A stretch of 64,000 bases of DNA from a virus (taxonomy: Duplodnaviria; Caudoviricetes), in IMG/VR virus record IMGVR_UViG_2511231106_000002, positions 1 to 64,000 of that record; one strand, 5' to 3'. Of this stretch, positions 3,473 to 28,067 are shown piece by piece (positions within the stretch are counted from its first letter, which is position 1; each line of letters begins with the position of its first letter). The translations under genes were made by a program, and so were the position numbers. The notes below the pieces were generated by a model. That model did not search any database and was not told where the DNA came from. It worked only from the letters and a program-made list of their open reading frames with translations.

Positions 3473-3741
3473 TTAAAGTTTCATGATAAAAGCTAGGGTG
3501 TAGTATGGCGGCATATTATTGTGGGGCTGGCCGCCGCCTGTTGGTTCAATAAATTCGCTCTGGAAATAATAGCCATGATTACCGTCAGCATAATATCCAG
3601 ATACTTTCCTGTCGGTGAAAGTACCGTTTATGCTGTTGTTTGATTGACCAGCATTGTACAAGATAGATTGCGGCTCGGTCTGTGGAAACCCACCCTTGGC
3701 CAATGCTATCCTGTGACCATGAGATGGCATCTCATCGGTGG
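3473..3741 (-). other. Silent alternative C-terminal cassette for tail fibre 2
   Basis: Begins right after the TAG of 3742..4401 with CCACCGA-TGAGAT; encodes TDEMPSHGH...GGGQPHNNMPPYYTLAFIMKL*, paralleling the expressed tip. Confidence 0.85.
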
Positions 3742-4401
3742 CTATGCGGTACGCCTCCACACATAGGCCGCCACGCAGGGAGACAGGTTGTTGTGAGGGA
3801 CATCTTTACCGAAATCCATGACAAACCCGTCACCTTGCCCGCTTTGTGGATTTGACTCGAAGCTGACATTTTCAATGGATGCAGGAGCCGAAAATACGCC
3901 GTGGGTGGTCAGCTTTTGATTTGGATCTTGTCTAGCAAAATCGAGGACATCTCCTCTGATATGGGGCAGTTCATCGGTGGTGAGCTTGTGCATTCGCTCG
4001 CCGTATTTCGTGCCCGCCACGTAGTTAAACGAGCCGAAATCATCTGTGCCGGAACCCTGTGCGATGAGCGTGTAGCCTGCTGGCAGGGCTTCCCACGTAC
4101 CGCCGAACAGGTCAGCGGGGCTGGTGCTTTTGTCGCTGAAGTAGTACGAGCCGACGGGGTGGGCGTCGAGCTTTGCTTTCGTCTGGGCGGCTGAAACTGC
4201 CGTGCTGATGGCTTGCTCGTAGGCCGCTTTTTGTTTAGCCAGGGCATCGGCCAGGAGCTTCTGGACCCACGCCGTGGTAGGCACTTTCTGAGAGTTATCG
4301 TCCTTTTCCGGTGACGAGACGTACATAGCTCCCCAATTTAACCCTTCAATACCAAGGGATCCTTCGCCATCGCCGTTGGGCACGATTGCTCTTGTCGTCA
4401 T
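3742..4401 (-). CDS. Tail fibre / receptor-binding protein 2 (gp53-like tip)
   Basis: HPVGSYY...SPADLFGGTWE...GERMHKLTTDELPH...HNNLSPCVAAYVWRRTA. Confidence 0.85.
   Translation of the reverse strand: MTTRAIVPNGDGEGSLGIEGLNWGAMYVSSPEKDDNSQKVPTTAWVQKLLADALAKQKAAYEQAISTAVSAAQTKAKLDAHPVGSYYFSDKSTSPADLFGGTWEALPAGYTLIAQGSGTDDFGSFNYVAGTKYGERMHKLTTDELPHIRGDVLDFARQDPNQKLTTHGVFSAPASIENVSFESNPQSGQGDGFVMDFGKDVPHNNLSPCVAAYVWRRTA
3968..3986 (-). repeat. Crossover site 2a AGCTCA-CCACCGA-TGAACT (partner 2b at 3729-3741)
   Basis: Inverted 6-bp arms around a 7-bp spacer; the spacer is repeated at 3741-3735. Confidence 0.75.
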
Positions 4402-4529
4402 TTAGACTCACCATCCTTCTTTTCATCGGCTTGCTGTTCCGGCTTATAAGCAATGCAGGCCGGGTTTACGCATTTATCGTCCACCAGCTTGTGAGCGCAA
4501 TATTCGCAACGCTTCGGGATCTTAAACAT
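4398..4529 (-). CDS. Small Cys-rich protein (43 aa), at the position of an XkdX-type gene
   Basis: Read manually: MFKIPKRCEYCAHKLVDDKCVNPACIAYKPEQQADEKKDGESK*; overlaps both neighbouring genes. Confidence 0.7.
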   Translation of the reverse strand: MFKIPKRCEYCAHKLVDDKCVNPACIAYKPEQQADEKKDGESK

Positions 4530-4971
4530 TCTCCATCGCCTCCTTGTATTGGGCTTGCAGGTCTTTAAAATCTGCCCGGATACTTTCCTGAGCGTCCGTG
4601 TCGCCGGTCAGGAGAGCCACGGCCATGCTGTCGGTCAGGTCCTTGACTGCACTGTCATAGTCGGCCTTGAGGCTGGCTTTCTGTGCCTCCTGTCGCTCTT
4701 GCTCCGTGAGCTCCGCCGGTGGCACGTAGGTACGTTTGGCCTGGGCATCCAGCAGGTCCTGGATGCGTTCACAGTAACCGCTGTAGGTGCCGTTGGGATA
4801 AGGTAAAAAATCTCCATCCACCACGCAGCACTCCTGTGTATCGTCATAGATAACGGATTCCGGGACGGATACAGCCCCGGCGTCGAGTAAAAAATTATCG
4901 ACGGTCTCGCTGTATGTGCGGTCGCCGTCGATGATCAAAACATTATTTTTTAAAATCTGAAAAACATGCAT
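4522..4971 (-). CDS. Putative tail fibre assembly/chaperone protein
   Basis: 149 aa, directly downstream of the tail fibre 1 cassettes; AAGGAG RBS. Confidence 0.6.
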   Translation of the reverse strand: MHVFQILKNNVLIIDGDRTYSETVDNFLLDAGAVSVPESVIYDDTQECCVVDGDFLPYPNGTYSGYCERIQDLLDAQAKRTYVPPAELTEQERQEAQKASLKADYDSAVKDLTDSMAVALLTGDTDAQESIRADFKDLQAQYKEAMENV

Positions 4972-4980
4972 TTTTATCTC

Positions 4981-5003
4981 CTTTCACTGAAAGTGAACTG
5001 GCA
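4981..5003 (+). repeat. Crossover site 1C CTTTCA-CTGAAAG-TGAACT-GGCA
   Basis: Inverted relative to sites 1A and 1B. Confidence 0.85.
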
Positions 5004-5267
5004 CCTCACAGCCACCTCGCCACGGCGGCAGTTGCAGGGAATCACAATCACAATATTCAATTAAGTAATTCATTAGGCGACGACTGGGGGCAATACAATA
5101 AATGCGCTCATAAAGGCCGTGACGGGTCCAGAATATGGAAAACTGAACCTATCTCGTACGCTGGCGATCATTCCCACAACATCACCATTTCTACGACGGG
5201 CGGCGGGGCCGCTCATGAGAACAGGATGCCGTATAGCGGCGTTGCCTACTGGGTTCGCACCCAATAA
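4986..5267 (+). other. Inverted silent C-terminal cassette C for tail fibre 1
   Basis: Open frame with no start codon: TESELAPHSHLATAAVAGNHNHNIQL...YAGDHSHNITISTTGGGAAHENRMPYSGVAYWVRTQ*. Confidence 0.9.
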
Positions 5268-5562
5268 CAAACGCCTTGGAACGGGGGCCTGTTTTCGTGG
5301 CTTTCATTGCCACCGATAGATCCTATTGCGATAGAAGGGGACAAGGTTTCAAGGACGTTGCGGACCTCTATTCCGTGGTCCTTGGCCCCTCCGCCCGATT
5401 CTTCACCGCTGACAATTGTTCCCGACCAACCATTTTTCGGAACATCTTTGTATTGGTTGGTTGACGAGTAATTTGTAACGACCCCATGAATTTGTGCAAC
5501 CCTAGATACAGCCAGCGTAGACGACGCAATTTTAGGCGTGATTTTTGCTAGTTCACTTTCAG
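5246..5562 (-). other. Silent C-terminal cassette B for tail fibre 1
   Basis: Open frame with no start codon: ESELAKITPKIASSTLAVSRV...IGGNESHENRPPFQGVCYWVRTQ*. Confidence 0.9.
5546..5562 (-). repeat. Crossover site 1B CTGAAAG-TGAACT-AGCA
   Basis: 17/17 identical to 5849-5865; lies 4 bp after the tail fibre stop codon. Confidence 0.88.
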
Positions 5563-5566
5563 CCCG

Positions 5567-6754
5567 TTAAGCCGTTCTTTCCCAATATGCCACGCCCTGA
5601 TACGGTTGGCGGTTTTCATGTCCTTCACCAGTCCCAGACGTGCCCAAAGAAACGGTGACAGCGTGGGAATGTGCGCCGTCAGTCGTGGTTTTTCCGAGGT
5701 AGTTATCGTGATCTGTTCCGGATGCCCCAGCATACCCACCTTGTGACGAATATTCGCCCAATGGATTGTTTTGTTTTACGTCACCTCTCCCACCGTGGTA
5801 ATGAGCGCCGTTAGTACTGCAAGCCGCAGAAGCTCTGTGGGTGTGAGGTGCTAGTTCACTTTCAGTGAGTTTGTGTTCAGCTTCGCCGCCCGTATCCCCC
5901 ACGGAATAGCTAAACTTTTTCCCGTTCTCCCAATATTCGCCAGCTCCGATAGGCACACGGCCCTGCAACGTGCGTTTCCAAGTCGTGCCTGCCCACAGCT
6001 GGTTTGGGTTTTGGTCGCCAGTGGTAGCGATGACAAATCCAACCGGATAGATGATGTCGATGATGTCCTTGACGGACCGCTGCTTGACCTGCTTCCAGGT
6101 ACCGTCAGCGTTCAGATAGTACTCGTTGTCCTGGCCGGCCATGGGACGGGGAACAAATCCCCGCTGCCCGTTAGCGGTCGACGTGCAACCTTTGAAGTCG
6201 CTGTGGGCGTTGACGTCCGTCAGGTGGGCCTGGAACTCTGCTTCCCCTACCGTCTGGGTATCTGATACATGGACGGATACGGTTTCAGCGTCACCCACGC
6301 TGGTGTAGATACCGACTTCCTGGGGCGTCATGGGGGTATCCTTGCTGGGCAGCCAGTCCGTTTTTCCTTCGTCGGCGTACCCATAGCAGAACAGGACAGC
6401 ATCCCCGGTGTACCCATCCCAGCTGTCCCCGGTGTAGTAGGAAGATTCTACCTTGGCCCACAGGCCCACTTCAGAGATGTGGAACCCGGTGGCCAGCGTG
6501 CTGTTCGAGAATTTCCCGAACGCTGCGTACCGGCCTTCCGTAGTGTCAGTGTTCTTGATTTTCTTCAGGCTAGTGATGTCGCTGGTCAGCTTCTCGTCGA
6601 CCAGGGCCGTCATGGCACTGATGGTGCTGGTGTCCGTCGGTCTGCTGTCGCCGATGGCCATTTTCGTAAACACCAAAGGGCATTTGTTCACCCTGGACAG
6701 GGCAATCAGGTTGAGGCCCTGTTTTGTGGTGACACATTGATGAAATTCAGCCAT
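5567..6754 (-). CDS. Tail fibre protein 1 (baseplate-attachment N-terminus, gp53-like variable tip)
   Basis: TTKQGLNLIA...FTKMAIGD...FHISEVGLWAK; IYPVG...GGEAEHKLTESELAPHTH...HENRQPYQGVAYWERTA. Confidence 0.88.
   Translation of the reverse strand: MAEFHQCVTTKQGLNLIALSRVNKCPLVFTKMAIGDSRPTDTSTISAMTALVDEKLTSDITSLKKIKNTDTTEGRYAAFGKFSNSTLATGFHISEVGLWAKVESSYYTGDSWDGYTGDAVLFCYGYADEGKTDWLPSKDTPMTPQEVGIYTSVGDAETVSVHVSDTQTVGEAEFQAHLTDVNAHSDFKGCTSTANGQRGFVPRPMAGQDNEYYLNADGTWKQVKQRSVKDIIDIIYPVGFVIATTGDQNPNQLWAGTTWKRTLQGRVPIGAGEYWENGKKFSYSVGDTGGEAEHKLTESELAPHTHRASAACSTNGAHYHGGRGDVKQNNPLGEYSSQGGYAGASGTDHDNYLGKTTTDGAHSHAVTVSLGTSGTGEGHENRQPYQGVAYWERTA
5849..5871 (-). repeat. Crossover site 1A AACTCA-CTGAAAG-TGAACT-AGCA inside tail fibre 1
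   Basis: Encodes KLTESELA at the constant/variable boundary. Confidence 0.88.
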
Positions 6755-6758
6755 TGTC

Positions 6759-7538
6759 TTACTCCTTTACTCGTATCGTTCCATCACTGTTAATGACGAA
6801 GACGTCATCCGTAGCACCCACCGGGGCTGCAGTAGCGGGAGACACTGTGCTGGTATTGGCGTTCCATACCGTGTTCGCCTTGAGGCCAAGCTCTGTCAGG
6901 TGGATGGCATCGTCTTTTATCTCGAATACCGGCGTATCCACGGACCACAGAACAGCCGTCTGCAGCACTTCGTCGTTGGCCAGCAGGCCGCATTCCACGC
7001 CCCTGGACGCCATCCGAATTACCGTACCGATGTACTCGGATGCATCCAGATGGGTCTTGAAGTGGTAGGTGCGGCCTAGGTGGGCTGGCAGGTAGGTATT
7101 CACAGCCTCGTCTATTTTCGTGAAATCGTGCGTTCCGCTATCGGGTAGGTAAATATCCACCGTATACTCGGATGGATGTTCCACAATCTGCGTGGCAGCC
7201 ACTGTGGTGAACAGGTTAATCATCCTGGTCAGGAAAGCGGGAGTCACCGTGGGCGGCTTCCCCATTTTGGCCAGTACGGATGCCCGTCTGGTCTCCAGGT
7301 CCACACTGGTATTCACATTGATGCCCAGCATACGCTCCCAGGCCGCCATGCCCCAGGTAGCCGTTTCCGCGTGGAACTGTTTGGTTACGTCAATCTGGGC
7401 CAGCCGCTGACGTTCGTGCTCTTTCTGCAAACTGTCCTGGATGGCTTTGAATTCCGGGCTCAGATATAGGAAAACCGGCAGATACCTTTTCAGGTTTACC
7501 GGGTCCGTTCTCAAGAATTGGAAATCTGGTGCTTTCAC
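6759..7538 (-). CDS. YmfQ/DUF2313-family baseplate protein
   Basis: LKRYLP...QFHAETATWGMAAWERMLGI...PAHL motifs. Confidence 0.85.
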   Translation of the reverse strand: MKAPDFQFLRTDPVNLKRYLPVFLYLSPEFKAIQDSLQKEHERQRLAQIDVTKQFHAETATWGMAAWERMLGINVNTSVDLETRRASVLAKMGKPPTVTPAFLTRMINLFTTVAATQIVEHPSEYTVDIYLPDSGTHDFTKIDEAVNTYLPAHLGRTYHFKTHLDASEYIGTVIRMASRGVECGLLANDEVLQTAVLWSVDTPVFEIKDDAIHLTELGLKANTVWNANTSTVSPATAAPVGATDDVFVINSDGTIRVKE

Positions 7539-7573
7539 AGGAACACCACCTCTTTCACATGAGGAATCTCAAA
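7535..7573 (-). pseudogene. C-terminal remnant of baseplate J gene
   Basis: Reads ...EIPHVKEVVFL* with a GTGA overlap onto the YmfQ start; resembles the baseplate J end of prophage R (QIPVAGKVVL). Confidence 0.55.
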
Positions 7574-7633
7574 GGTGTCTGTATTTGATACAATCGAACG
7601 ATAGCAGGGATTTTGAACACCCCCGTGTTCACT

Positions 7634-8591: not shown

Positions 8592-9806
8592 TTAGAAATG
8601 CTTCTCCTCTGCCGCCTTGAAATTATAGACTGGTTTCATCACGTCGATAACGTCCACGGTGTCACCGATGACATCCAAGATATCGTCAAGGGATTTGTAG
8701 GCCATAGGAGCCTCGTCAATGGTACCTTCGTTTACCGATGTTGTATATACGCCTGCCATCTCCTGCTGGTATTCCTTGAGGGAAAGCTCTTTGATTGCCT
8801 GGGTACGGGACATGATGCGGCCTGCGCCGTGCGGGGCAGAGTAATTCCACTCGGCATTGCCTTTGCCGAGTGCCAGGATGCTTCCGTCACGCATGTTGAT
8901 GGGAATGAGAACCTTTTCACCCTTATGTGCGGCGATGGCTCCTTTTCTGAGAATCATCTCATCGACATCGATGTAGTTGTGAATGGTATGAAACGCTTCG
9001 CCGGGCTGAAGGCCGGCTCTTTCCAGCAGTTTTTTGGCAATCTGCTCCCGGTTCAGTCTAGCAAACTGCTGGCAAAGAGCCACATCATGCAGATACTGCC
9101 TCAGGTATTTTCCGGAGACAAAGCAAAGATCTTCCGGCAGCTTTTCTCTGCGTTGTTCTGACTTCGCCTGCTGGATGGCCTTCTGGATTTCTTTTTGCCG
9201 TCCTGCTGCCTTGTATTCTGCTATGATATGCTGGAGCCGTTCTTCCAGTGTTTCATCATGGGCATTCAGCTCAACGGCCATGCGCTGATAAATCTCCGCC
9301 ACCTGTTTTCCCAGGTTCCGGCTTCCTGTATGGATGACGAGATAATGTCGACCATCATGGGTTTTATCGACCTCGATGAAATGATTCCCGCCTCCCAGGG
9401 TACCGATACTGCAGGCAATCCAAGACAGTTTTTTCAGCTTGTCATAACAATAGAGCCGCTGCAAATTGAAGTCAGCCTGTTTCTCAGGCCAGACATTCAT
9501 CCCGGAAGGTACGATGTGAGCCGCTTCATCGAGTCTGGCAAAATCAATCGGCTGCTTGTCAAGAGCAATCGTATACATGCCACAGCCGATGTCCACGCCG
9601 ACGATGTTCGGTACTGCCTTGTCTGTGATTGTCATCGTCGTACCAATCGTACAGCCTTTCCCGGCATGGACGTCCGGCATAATCCGCACCCGGCTCCCCT
9701 TCGTCAGCTCATAGCTGCACATGCGGCGGATTTGTTCCCTCGCTTTCTCATCGATACTCTTGGCATACGATATTGCCGTTGTAACTGTTCCTTCAATCCG
9801 TTCCAT
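8592..9806 (-). CDS. rtcB: RtcB family RNA 2',3'-cyclic phosphate/5'-OH ligase
   Basis: MPDVHAGKG, VGVDIGCG, GTLGGGNHFIE, HTGSRNLG, HNY, RKGA, SAPHGAGR, DEAPMAYK; start moved to MERIEG. Confidence 0.93.
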   Translation of the reverse strand: MERIEGTVTTAISYAKSIDEKAREQIRRMCSYELTKGSRVRIMPDVHAGKGCTIGTTMTITDKAVPNIVGVDIGCGMYTIALDKQPIDFARLDEAAHIVPSGMNVWPEKQADFNLQRLYCYDKLKKLSWIACSIGTLGGGNHFIEVDKTHDGRHYLVIHTGSRNLGKQVAEIYQRMAVELNAHDETLEERLQHIIAEYKAAGRQKEIQKAIQQAKSEQRREKLPEDLCFVSGKYLRQYLHDVALCQQFARLNREQIAKKLLERAGLQPGEAFHTIHNYIDVDEMILRKGAIAAHKGEKVLIPINMRDGSILALGKGNAEWNYSAPHGAGRIMSRTQAIKELSLKEYQQEMAGVYTTSVNEGTIDEAPMAYKSLDDILDVIGDTVDVIDVMKPVYNFKAAEEKHF

Positions 9807-27083: not shown

Positions 27084-28067
27084 CTAGCCTGTCCGCTGGA
27101 ACATGTACACGACGATGGACGGCTGCATGTTGTTGTGCGGCTGGCCACCACCCGTCCGGGAAAGGCTGTGGGAATGATTCCCATCCCAGGAGGTATGCCC
27201 GTCCACCTGATTCCCATGCCAGCAACCGTCGCCATAACCTACGGCAACAGGTGCATCATTGCCTTCACAGGCATCCCACTGGAAGTTGCGCGGCAATGAC
27301 CCGCAGGACCAGTGACGATGATTTCCGCTGTCTCCGACTGTATGGCCATGAGCCGGAGTTTCTGGAATCGTAAGGTTGTGCTTCTCCTCACCCAGCTTGT
27401 CCCCGGCCTTGTACATGGTTCCGCTGTCTGCCGTACCGGCACCAATCAGGCAGCGGCCCATGGCAAAGGCCACCCAGGTCGTACCCGGCCAGTACGTTGC
27501 CGGATTCTTCCCGTCTGCGGAAATATAGATGGCATTGACAGGGAACGGACAGGCCTGAATCTTAGCCACGGCTTCCTCGTCCATATCGGCGTAGGTGACC
27601 TTGCCCCAGCTGCCATTGCTGTGCAGGACGGTATTCAGCTTCCCGGCTGAAGGTGACGGGACCATGCCGCTCTGGCCTGCCGTCTTTTCGCCGCAACCGC
27701 TGAAATCTGGCAGGGTGATATCCTTCGTGCCATCAAAGACAACCCGGTGAATCTTCCGCCCCGTCTGCAGCTTCGACGCACTGGCCGCATTGCCGCTGAT
27801 GCCGCTGGCATGGGCCTTGGCATCGGTCAGATGGGCATTGATGTCGGCTGCCGTAGCGGAAATCCGCTCATAGAGCCGGGCATCATTACTGACCAGCTGG
27901 GACACGGTCTTGTTCTGCTGATTGAAGACGACCGGGTCTTCTGAAAGATATTGAGGGAAAAGCACGTCATAATCCAGCGTATTCTCCACAGCTTCTGTGG
28001 GCCGGACTTCCTGTCCGGCACGGTCCGGGAAGTCGGCAGACCATTTCTCTTTGCTGTAATCATCCAT
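27084..28067 (-). CDS. Tail fibre protein with gp53-like tip
   Basis: ASKLQTGRKI..V.FDGTKDI, FPVNAIY, GEEKHNLTIPETPAHGH, HNNMQPSIVVYMFQRTG. Confidence 0.85.
   Translation of the reverse strand: MDDYSKEKWSADFPDRAGQEVRPTEAVENTLDYDVLFPQYLSEDPVVFNQQNKTVSQLVSNDARLYERISATAADINAHLTDAKAHASGISGNAASASKLQTGRKIHRVVFDGTKDITLPDFSGCGEKTAGQSGMVPSPSAGKLNTVLHSNGSWGKVTYADMDEEAVAKIQACPFPVNAIYISADGKNPATYWPGTTWVAFAMGRCLIGAGTADSGTMYKAGDKLGEEKHNLTIPETPAHGHTVGDSGNHRHWSCGSLPRNFQWDACEGNDAPVAVGYGDGCWHGNQVDGHTSWDGNHSHSLSRTGGGQPHNNMQPSIVVYMFQRTG

Follow-up and report, generated by a model that had tools for sequence, protein, structure and literature searches.

A probable three-cassette shufflon exchanging tail-fibre tips in an Acidaminococcus intestini prophage

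We analyzed the first 64 kb (hereafter the window) of the 99,952-nt IMG/VR provirus record IMGVR_UViG_2511231106_000002 and identified a tail fibre gene (tail fibre 1) accompanied by two silent alternative 3' ends and three copies of a 17-nt repeat. We consider it probable, at about 0.8, that this locus is a three-site, three-cassette inversion system (a shufflon) that exchanges the C-terminal ~100 residues of the fibre in a prophage of A. intestini. The exchanged part is the distal part of the Gp10_C/collar-like tip of a myovirus-type fibre. In the proposed mechanism, recombination between oppositely oriented sites would lead to inversion and would fuse a constant part ending in HKL-T in frame to tip A, tip B or tip C. 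The tips would be expected to differ in receptor specificity, and exchanging them would affect the host range. The fibre protein also occurs, unchanged, in NCBI assembly GCA_000230275.1 (record CP003058.1), which we take to be A. intestini RyC-MR95, and a cluster of the ACI-1 beta-lactamase and transposases at 9.9-19.5 kb fits that strain. The prophage context of RyC-MR95 has been described, with inversion unmentioned (bioRxiv 10.1101/235788).

The site CTGAAAGTGAACTRGCA occurs at 4987-5003 on the plus strand (s1) and at 5546-5562 (s2) and 5849-5865 (s3) on the minus strand, and no further copy was detected in the 64-kb window when up to two mismatches were allowed. The chance expectation was 0.05 copies as against the three found, and none of 100 shuffles gave three matches. 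The sites are present in both orientations, s1 being inverted relative to s2 and s3. Site s3 lies inside the fibre gene, in the middle of the Gp10_C domain, where its codons read T-E-S-E-L-A (residues 297-302). Site s2 is direct relative to s3 and begins 4 nt past the stop codon of tip A, and s1 abuts the ribosome-binding site (RBS) of the next gene. Between s2 and s3 not one of the 17 nt differs, third codon positions included. When the sequences were read for 12-2-12 dyad symmetry, it was absent from all three sites.

Tail fibre 1 is encoded on the minus strand at 5567-6754 (395 amino acids, aa; stop codon at 5567-5569), and its open reading frame (ORF) runs across s3 as ...HKL-TESELAPHTH.... 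The constant part (residues 1-296; 5867..6754, minus strand) comprises an N-terminal Phage_tail_fib domain and the first half of Gp10_C, which according to Pfam spans residues 231-394. In alignment A1 the fibre was conserved up to H294-x-L-T297. Tip A, which is installed in the window, occupies 5567..5866 on the minus strand (99 codons and the stop). Silent cassette B (5246..5563, minus strand; 105 codons and TAG) is open, start-less and in the frame of s2, while silent cassette C is inverted (4986..5267, plus strand; 93 codons and TAA) and is likewise open, start-less and in the frame of s1. Both cassettes end in HENRxP(Y/F)xGV(A/C)YWVRTQ, tip A closes with the same motif, and the middles of B and C are unrelated. 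The 3' ends of B and C converge and overlap by 22 nt (5246..5267), a near-palindrome that encodes YWVRTQ-stop on both strands. The initial annotation of this DNA had proposed two start-less in-frame cassettes with shared ends and unrelated middles; the sequence bears this out, and every site, cassette and fibre coordinate given there was correct on re-check. Gene annotation overlooks two of the three receptor-binding tips at this locus, which is relevant to the prediction of host range from gut viromes.

Scanning IMG/VR and the JGI/ENA metagenomes and looking up exact proteins yielded over 40 related contigs, in each of which the sites and cassettes were mapped. The same layout of a constant 5' part and start-less alternative 3' cassettes was found in more than 30 related contigs. 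Two of the relatives, L017 and L018, are contigs of two independent sequencing runs and both encode the identical fibre 1. Their flanks matched the window genome (L016) at 1686/1686 and 290/290 nt across gp48, the fibre and tip A, and at 1730-1731 of 1732 nt in the 1.7 kb downstream. The 550 nt between the s2 and s1 cores matched at 142/550 positions when compared directly; after reverse complementation the match was 550/550. The left flank of each site had kept its position, and the base following the 13-nt core (A or G) moved with the cassette. Since the 17-nt repeat is shorter than the assembler word length, assembly cannot have flipped this segment. The B-C inversion (s1 x s2) that had been predicted from the window is thus present exactly, in otherwise identical DNA. 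In the same manner, L005 and L079 have 100% identical flanks and differ by inversion of the whole array (927/927 nt), and L084 and L074 differ by inversion of the B/C segment (576/576 nt).

We write > for a cassette in the fibre orientation and < for an inverted one, the first-named tip being the one fused to the fibre. Under a model that permits only inversion between oppositely oriented sites, four states can be reached from the window state, A>B>C<, and all four exist among natural sequences: A>B>C< in the window, A>C>B< in L017 and L018, B>C<A< in L007, L075, L010 and L074, and C>B<A< in L084. Cassette identity between the isomer relatives and the window is 78-98%, as against only about 50-54% for the constant part. 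It had been predicted that an A-C inversion would install tip C, and that a B-C inversion followed by an A-C inversion would install tip B. The last two of the arrangements listed above are those in which B and C, respectively, are installed, and alignment of homologues, which could have yielded one single arrangement, yielded multiple cassette orders. The junction pattern expected for the C-installed isomer of the window's own allele had no match in IMG/VR. A parallel set of cassettes {A, D, B} was found as three isomers, A>D>B< (L005), A>B>... (L067) and B>D<A< (L079 and L061), and the two-cassette versions {E, B} and {C, B} were each seen in both orientations.

The individual tips could be followed through the same contigs. 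Copies of tip A, 95-99% identical, are inverted and silent in L007, L010, L079 and L084. Cassette B is installed on the fibres of L007, L008, L010, L022, L069 and L077, and cassette C is installed in L084 and L073 and in proteins P0009-P0016. Ten full-length fibres (protein clusters) carry tip C at 47-97% identity, eight of them at 84-97% and with a length of 384-390 aa. The ratio of non-synonymous to synonymous substitution rates (dN/dS) between the window and relatives was 0.06-0.15 for cassette B and 0.03-0.26 for cassette C; in these comparisons dS reached about 1-2, and some of the pairs compared had a silent copy in each genome. The silent cassettes are under purifying selection and are therefore translated part of the time.

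The claim that the three tips are tip domains also stood, on the Pfam matches of natural fusions and not on a structural model. The PF21939 (Gp10_C) match runs across the junction with an E-value of 4e-15 for tip A, 1.3e-8 for a natural fusion to tip B and 4.5e-14 for a fusion to a fifth tip, E, and fusions to tip C have a precomputed PF21939 match. Searches with the cassettes alone gave no PF21939 match. When the fibre profile was compared with solved structures, T4 gp10 was matched weakly (E-value 0.011).

The crossover was mapped to within CTGAGAG from the junctions of L005 and L067, which are 99.9% identical and whose sites are polymorphic past position 7. In this pair the left flank and CTGAGAG remained fixed in place, and the sequence from nt 8 onward (nt 8-14) went with the cassette. 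The 7-nt region is CTGAAAG in the window and CTGAGAG in relatives, and it is followed by a conserved right arm, TGAACTRGC. Within each array the 7 nt are identical across all sites and the arm that follows is slightly variable. The left flanks are mutually unrelated, being the end of the constant part, the end of tip A and the RBS of the next gene. The site has an asymmetric, sfx-like layout with a 7-nt crossover region and a conserved arm on one side only. The same architecture is known for the sfx sites of the R64 shufflon. A 7-nt region fits the 6-8 bp overlap of tyrosine recombinases, but taken alone it is compatible with a 2-bp serine exchange as well. Public data thus sufficed, without experiment, to recover all of the predicted isomers and to narrow the crossover to 7 nt.

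A dedicated recombinase beside the array, as expected of a shufflon, was not found in the window's phage, but it was found in about 19 distinct related contigs. These carry the gene for a 322-aa tyrosine recombinase (PF00589) 1.9-2.4 kb beyond the array, in convergent orientation to the late operon, with fibre 2 on one side and the holin-lysin genes on the other. The protein has the catalytic residues R, K, HxxR, H and Y, its best solved relatives are XerA and XerD, and it has no arm-binding domain, unlike the separate 355-aa integrase. In the complete relative G001 and in the prophage of A. intestini DSM 21505 the 322-aa enzyme coexists with a separate integrase. The sequence comparison points to a Xer-like tyrosine recombinase of this 322-aa family as the probable invertase. 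The 322-aa gene is absent from the window's phage type, including the intact copies L017 and L022. This phage has presumably lost the gene, and inversion in it would depend on an enzyme supplied in trans, for instance from a related prophage resident in the same host. Since the recombinase-less type inverted recently (L016 versus L017/L018), it is simplest to suppose that a related enzyme carried out the inversion in trans. That recombinase-less copies are still inverting suggests that prophages share an invertase in this way. In L010, L074 and L084 (L084:8332-8976) the array-side recombinase is only 214 aa long, an internal deletion having removed the first catalytic Arg; L084 and L074 still differ by the exact 576-nt inversion described above.

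Several points weigh against a shufflon that operates in this genome. No small serine or tyrosine recombinase was detected near the array or in the rest of the window, and the whole 99,952-nt record contains one tyrosine recombinase, at its far end (98.9-99.9 kb), and two large serine recombinases. An insertion of 59.8 kb separates baseplate J from gp48 and interrupts the prophage at about 7570, and with the prophage split a tip switch may be inconsequential here. An AlphaFold2 model of the fibre from a 16-sequence alignment (predicted local distance difference test, pLDDT, 45; predicted TM-score, pTM, 0.33) was too poor for a fold search. The locus could then be a genuine shufflon by descent that inverts no longer in this strain and has tip A fixed, and we regard this as a possibility to be taken seriously though not as the probable one. 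Besides the split and the lack of a recombinase in cis, the fibre-2 array of this prophage is down to two direct sites, and another recombinase-less lineage (L022, L069, L070 and L077) has a single orientation in 4/4 contigs. Against such a relic, copies that lack the recombinase, L016 as compared with L017/L018, do differ by an exact inversion between 100% identical flanks, the lineage whose recombinase lacks the first catalytic Arg also shows an inversion at 576/576 nt, and the cassettes of the window are intact.

The remaining alternatives concern what acts on the sites, if anything does. It is unlikely that the phage's own 355-aa integrase doubles as the invertase. It is the sole tyrosine recombinase of the record and is 98% identical to the integrase of G001, but it has an arm-type DNA-binding domain typical of integrases, the relatives have a separate, dedicated recombinase beside their arrays, and no copy of the site (up to two mismatches) was present at the prophage-host junction region of L016. 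A serine invertase of the Gin/Cin/Min type would be in line with the classic tail-fibre inversion systems of Mu, P1 and p15B, and its 2-bp crossover would fit inside the 7 nt. We consider it very improbable, because PF00239 was found in only one of five related phage records, as a large serine recombinase far from the array at the record end (three of the four records without it are rated complete), and because in the window's record PF00239 occurs only as the 522-aa and 566-aa recombinases, both inside the inserted element. The sites also lack the 12-2-12 dyad symmetry of gix and cix, and the putative chaperone gene lies outside the invertible DNA. Finally, there might be no programmed inversion at all, the repeats being an HxLTxxEL coding motif, the cassettes debris, and the various orders products of homologous recombination between phages. 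The site does encode a conserved motif, and the family is highly mosaic around s3. This explanation is nevertheless hardly credible, given that s2 and s3 agree at third codon positions too (17/17 nt), that the breakpoints map exactly inside the 7 nt, the DNA being 100% identical otherwise, that the silent cassettes are under purifying selection, and that 17 nt is too short for RecA-type exchange. We retain the three-cassette inversion system as the preferred reading.

The locus had initially been likened to the R64 pilV shufflon and to the invertible tail fibres of Mu and P1. With its asymmetric site and the tyrosine recombinase of the relatives, the layout comes closer to the former, and to the Rin system, than to the Mu/P1 serine-invertase type. 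The R64 (IncI) pilV shufflon employs the tyrosine recombinase Rci and asymmetric sfx sites with a 7-bp crossover, a conserved right arm and a variable left one. In both systems multiple inversions swap C-terminal segments of one gene, and direct and inverted sites coexist stably. On the other hand, the target in R64 is a conjugative pilus adhesin, the site sequences are unrelated, and the enzyme of the relatives looks Xer-like. Tail-fibre switching by inversion has long been known in Mu, P1, e14 and p15B, all of which use serine invertases. In the Gin (Mu), Cin (P1), Pin (e14) and Min systems DNA inversion likewise swaps the C-termini of tail fibres and there changes the host range, but these systems have small serine invertases, dyad-symmetric 26-bp sites, an enhancer, and matching assembly genes within the invertible DNA, none of which is found here. 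Min of p15B, as summarised in PMC6109161, has several crossover sites and many isomers.

A closer parallel in a gut phage is the Rin shufflon of Bifidobacterium prophages, which has 11-bp rix repeats and a tyrosine-family invertase without an arm-binding domain beside the cassettes (Mavrich et al. 2018, PMC6109161), and whose isomers were likewise found by comparing prophages (PMC6109161). Both are temperate gut phages with a constant N-terminal receptor-binding gene, start-less C-terminal cassettes and a short asymmetric repeat before each. They differ in that our phage has a Negativicute host, a contractile tail and a Gp10_C/collar-like tip, the Rin tip being TP901-1-like; furthermore, the site here lies inside a conserved coding motif, relatives have two arrays, and this copy is without a recombinase. 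A BV01-like Phocaeicola phage carries a shufflon of three cassettes with directional 10-bp motifs and a flanking recombinase, all configurations of which were seen in reads (PMC13596623, a 2026 preprint). It resembles the present case as a temperate gut phage with a three-cassette tail-fibre shufflon, but the host phylum and the fibre type differ, and the BV01 cassettes alter the position of the stop codon and the protein length, whereas homologous tips are swapped within one domain here. Across bacteria, tail-fibre genes are enriched among the targets of programmed inversion (PMC9881135). Tip switching by inversion is thus already known in kind, and the host class and the fibre family are what is new here. 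The locus is a clear case, taken from nature, of programmed tip switching among phages of the Negativicutes, diderm Firmicutes whose phages have received little study.

A second fibre gene of the prophage has a small array of its own. Tail fibre 2 (3742..4401, minus strand; 219 aa, Gp10_C) contains site 2a (CCACCGATGAACTGCC, 3965-3980, minus strand), and site 2b (CCACCGATGAGATGCC, 3726-3741, minus strand) is direct relative to it and opens a silent, start-less cassette, 2b (3473..3741 including the site, minus strand), which ends in ...HNNMPPYYTLAFIMKL. No inverted partner of sites 2a and 2b was found at the fibre-2 array of the window; these sites therefore cannot invert, and only a deletion could install cassette 2b. 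The relatives L005 and L079 have four fibre-2 sites (CCACCGA-TGARYTRCC), in an array beside the 322-aa recombinase gene, and the two contigs differ by inversions that change the tip of fibre 2. The fibre-1 and fibre-2 arrays have a right arm of the same type and different 7-nt regions. We tentatively suggest that one Xer-like recombinase family might drive both arrays through the shared arm, with the different 7 nt preventing cross-reaction, that it might work in trans on prophages that lack the enzyme, and that the sites might serve as hot spots of exchange between phages (compare the mosaic joints of L061 and L084 below). The second tail-fibre module of the window (27084-28067) was also checked for an array and showed one weak inverted repeat; a 226-aa ORF that overlaps it looks spurious.

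The array is flanked by conserved genes. Directly upstream of fibre 1 is a gene for a Mu Gp48-like baseplate protein (6759..7538, minus strand; PF10076, E-value 2.3e-22). On the other side the array is invariably followed by a 149-aa gene (4522..4971, minus strand), accompanied by a 43-aa gene and fibre 2, with synteny in more than 30 loci. A Pfam search of the 149-aa product found no family. It may be a fibre assembly chaperone, for which there is an Atlas lead to Caudo_TAP (0.90) with few shared features. In every relative s1 abuts the RBS and ATG of this gene (4972-5003), and transcription of the gene, of fibre 2 and of the lysis genes must therefore read through the array in any orientation. 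Exact-protein look-ups of a 189-aa gene and of one recombinase variant gave no match. A 312-aa gene at 1-939 (phrog_3243), which separates the lysis genes from an HTH_59 gene, was evaluated as a possible cryptic recombinase and was rejected, as it matched no Pfam family and showed no recombinase-like motif. All loci in which the gene was found are without the 322-aa recombinase, and it is absent at the syntenic position of L030, which carries that enzyme.

In the intact copies L017 and L018 the upstream genes encode sheath, tube, tape measure, baseplate J and gp48, as in a myovirus-type prophage. Positions 1-9188 of L017 correspond to record positions 67376-76563 at 100% identity, and positions 9186-9216 to 7539-7569, so that three bases of L017 match both sides of the join of the insertion. 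The inserted DNA contains DUF4268, RtcB, insertion sequence (IS) elements and transposases, the ACI-1 beta-lactamase gene (aci1), the two large serine recombinases, a SacI-type restriction-modification system and a second tailed prophage. Since the aci1 insertion of the reference strain resides in the same prophage, the behaviour of the tail genes bears on whether that prophage is still mobile. Among species-representative genomes one relative was found, in A. intestini DSM 21505. A blastn search of GenBank phages with positions 4400-7600 gave no match, and tblastn with the fibre gave only relatives of at most 37% identity that covered the C-terminal 40-58%.

Mosaic joints located at s3 or close to it were seen in several relatives. 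At L061:1263 the constant part of the window (100% at the aa level) is joined to the cassette set and downstream genes of L005, and at L084:5873 the upstream genes of L076 (99.9%) are joined to the array and downstream genes of L074. L068 and L069 also differ by such a joint. Phages may exchange DNA preferentially at s3 or at the conserved sequence that precedes it. The locus L004:3291-6246 has two convergent constant regions, 87% and 41% identical to that of the window, with four cassettes between them and the 7-nt regions CTGCTGA and CTGTCGA; it could represent an array with two ends, a place where two prophages join or an assembly chimera. A more distant phage group (L045, L051, L055 and L057) has sites CTGTCGGRGARNT (TVGEL...), 2-4 short cassettes of 62-85 aa, and a nearby recombinase that is 36-54% identical. 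In L055 all four cassettes are in direct orientation.

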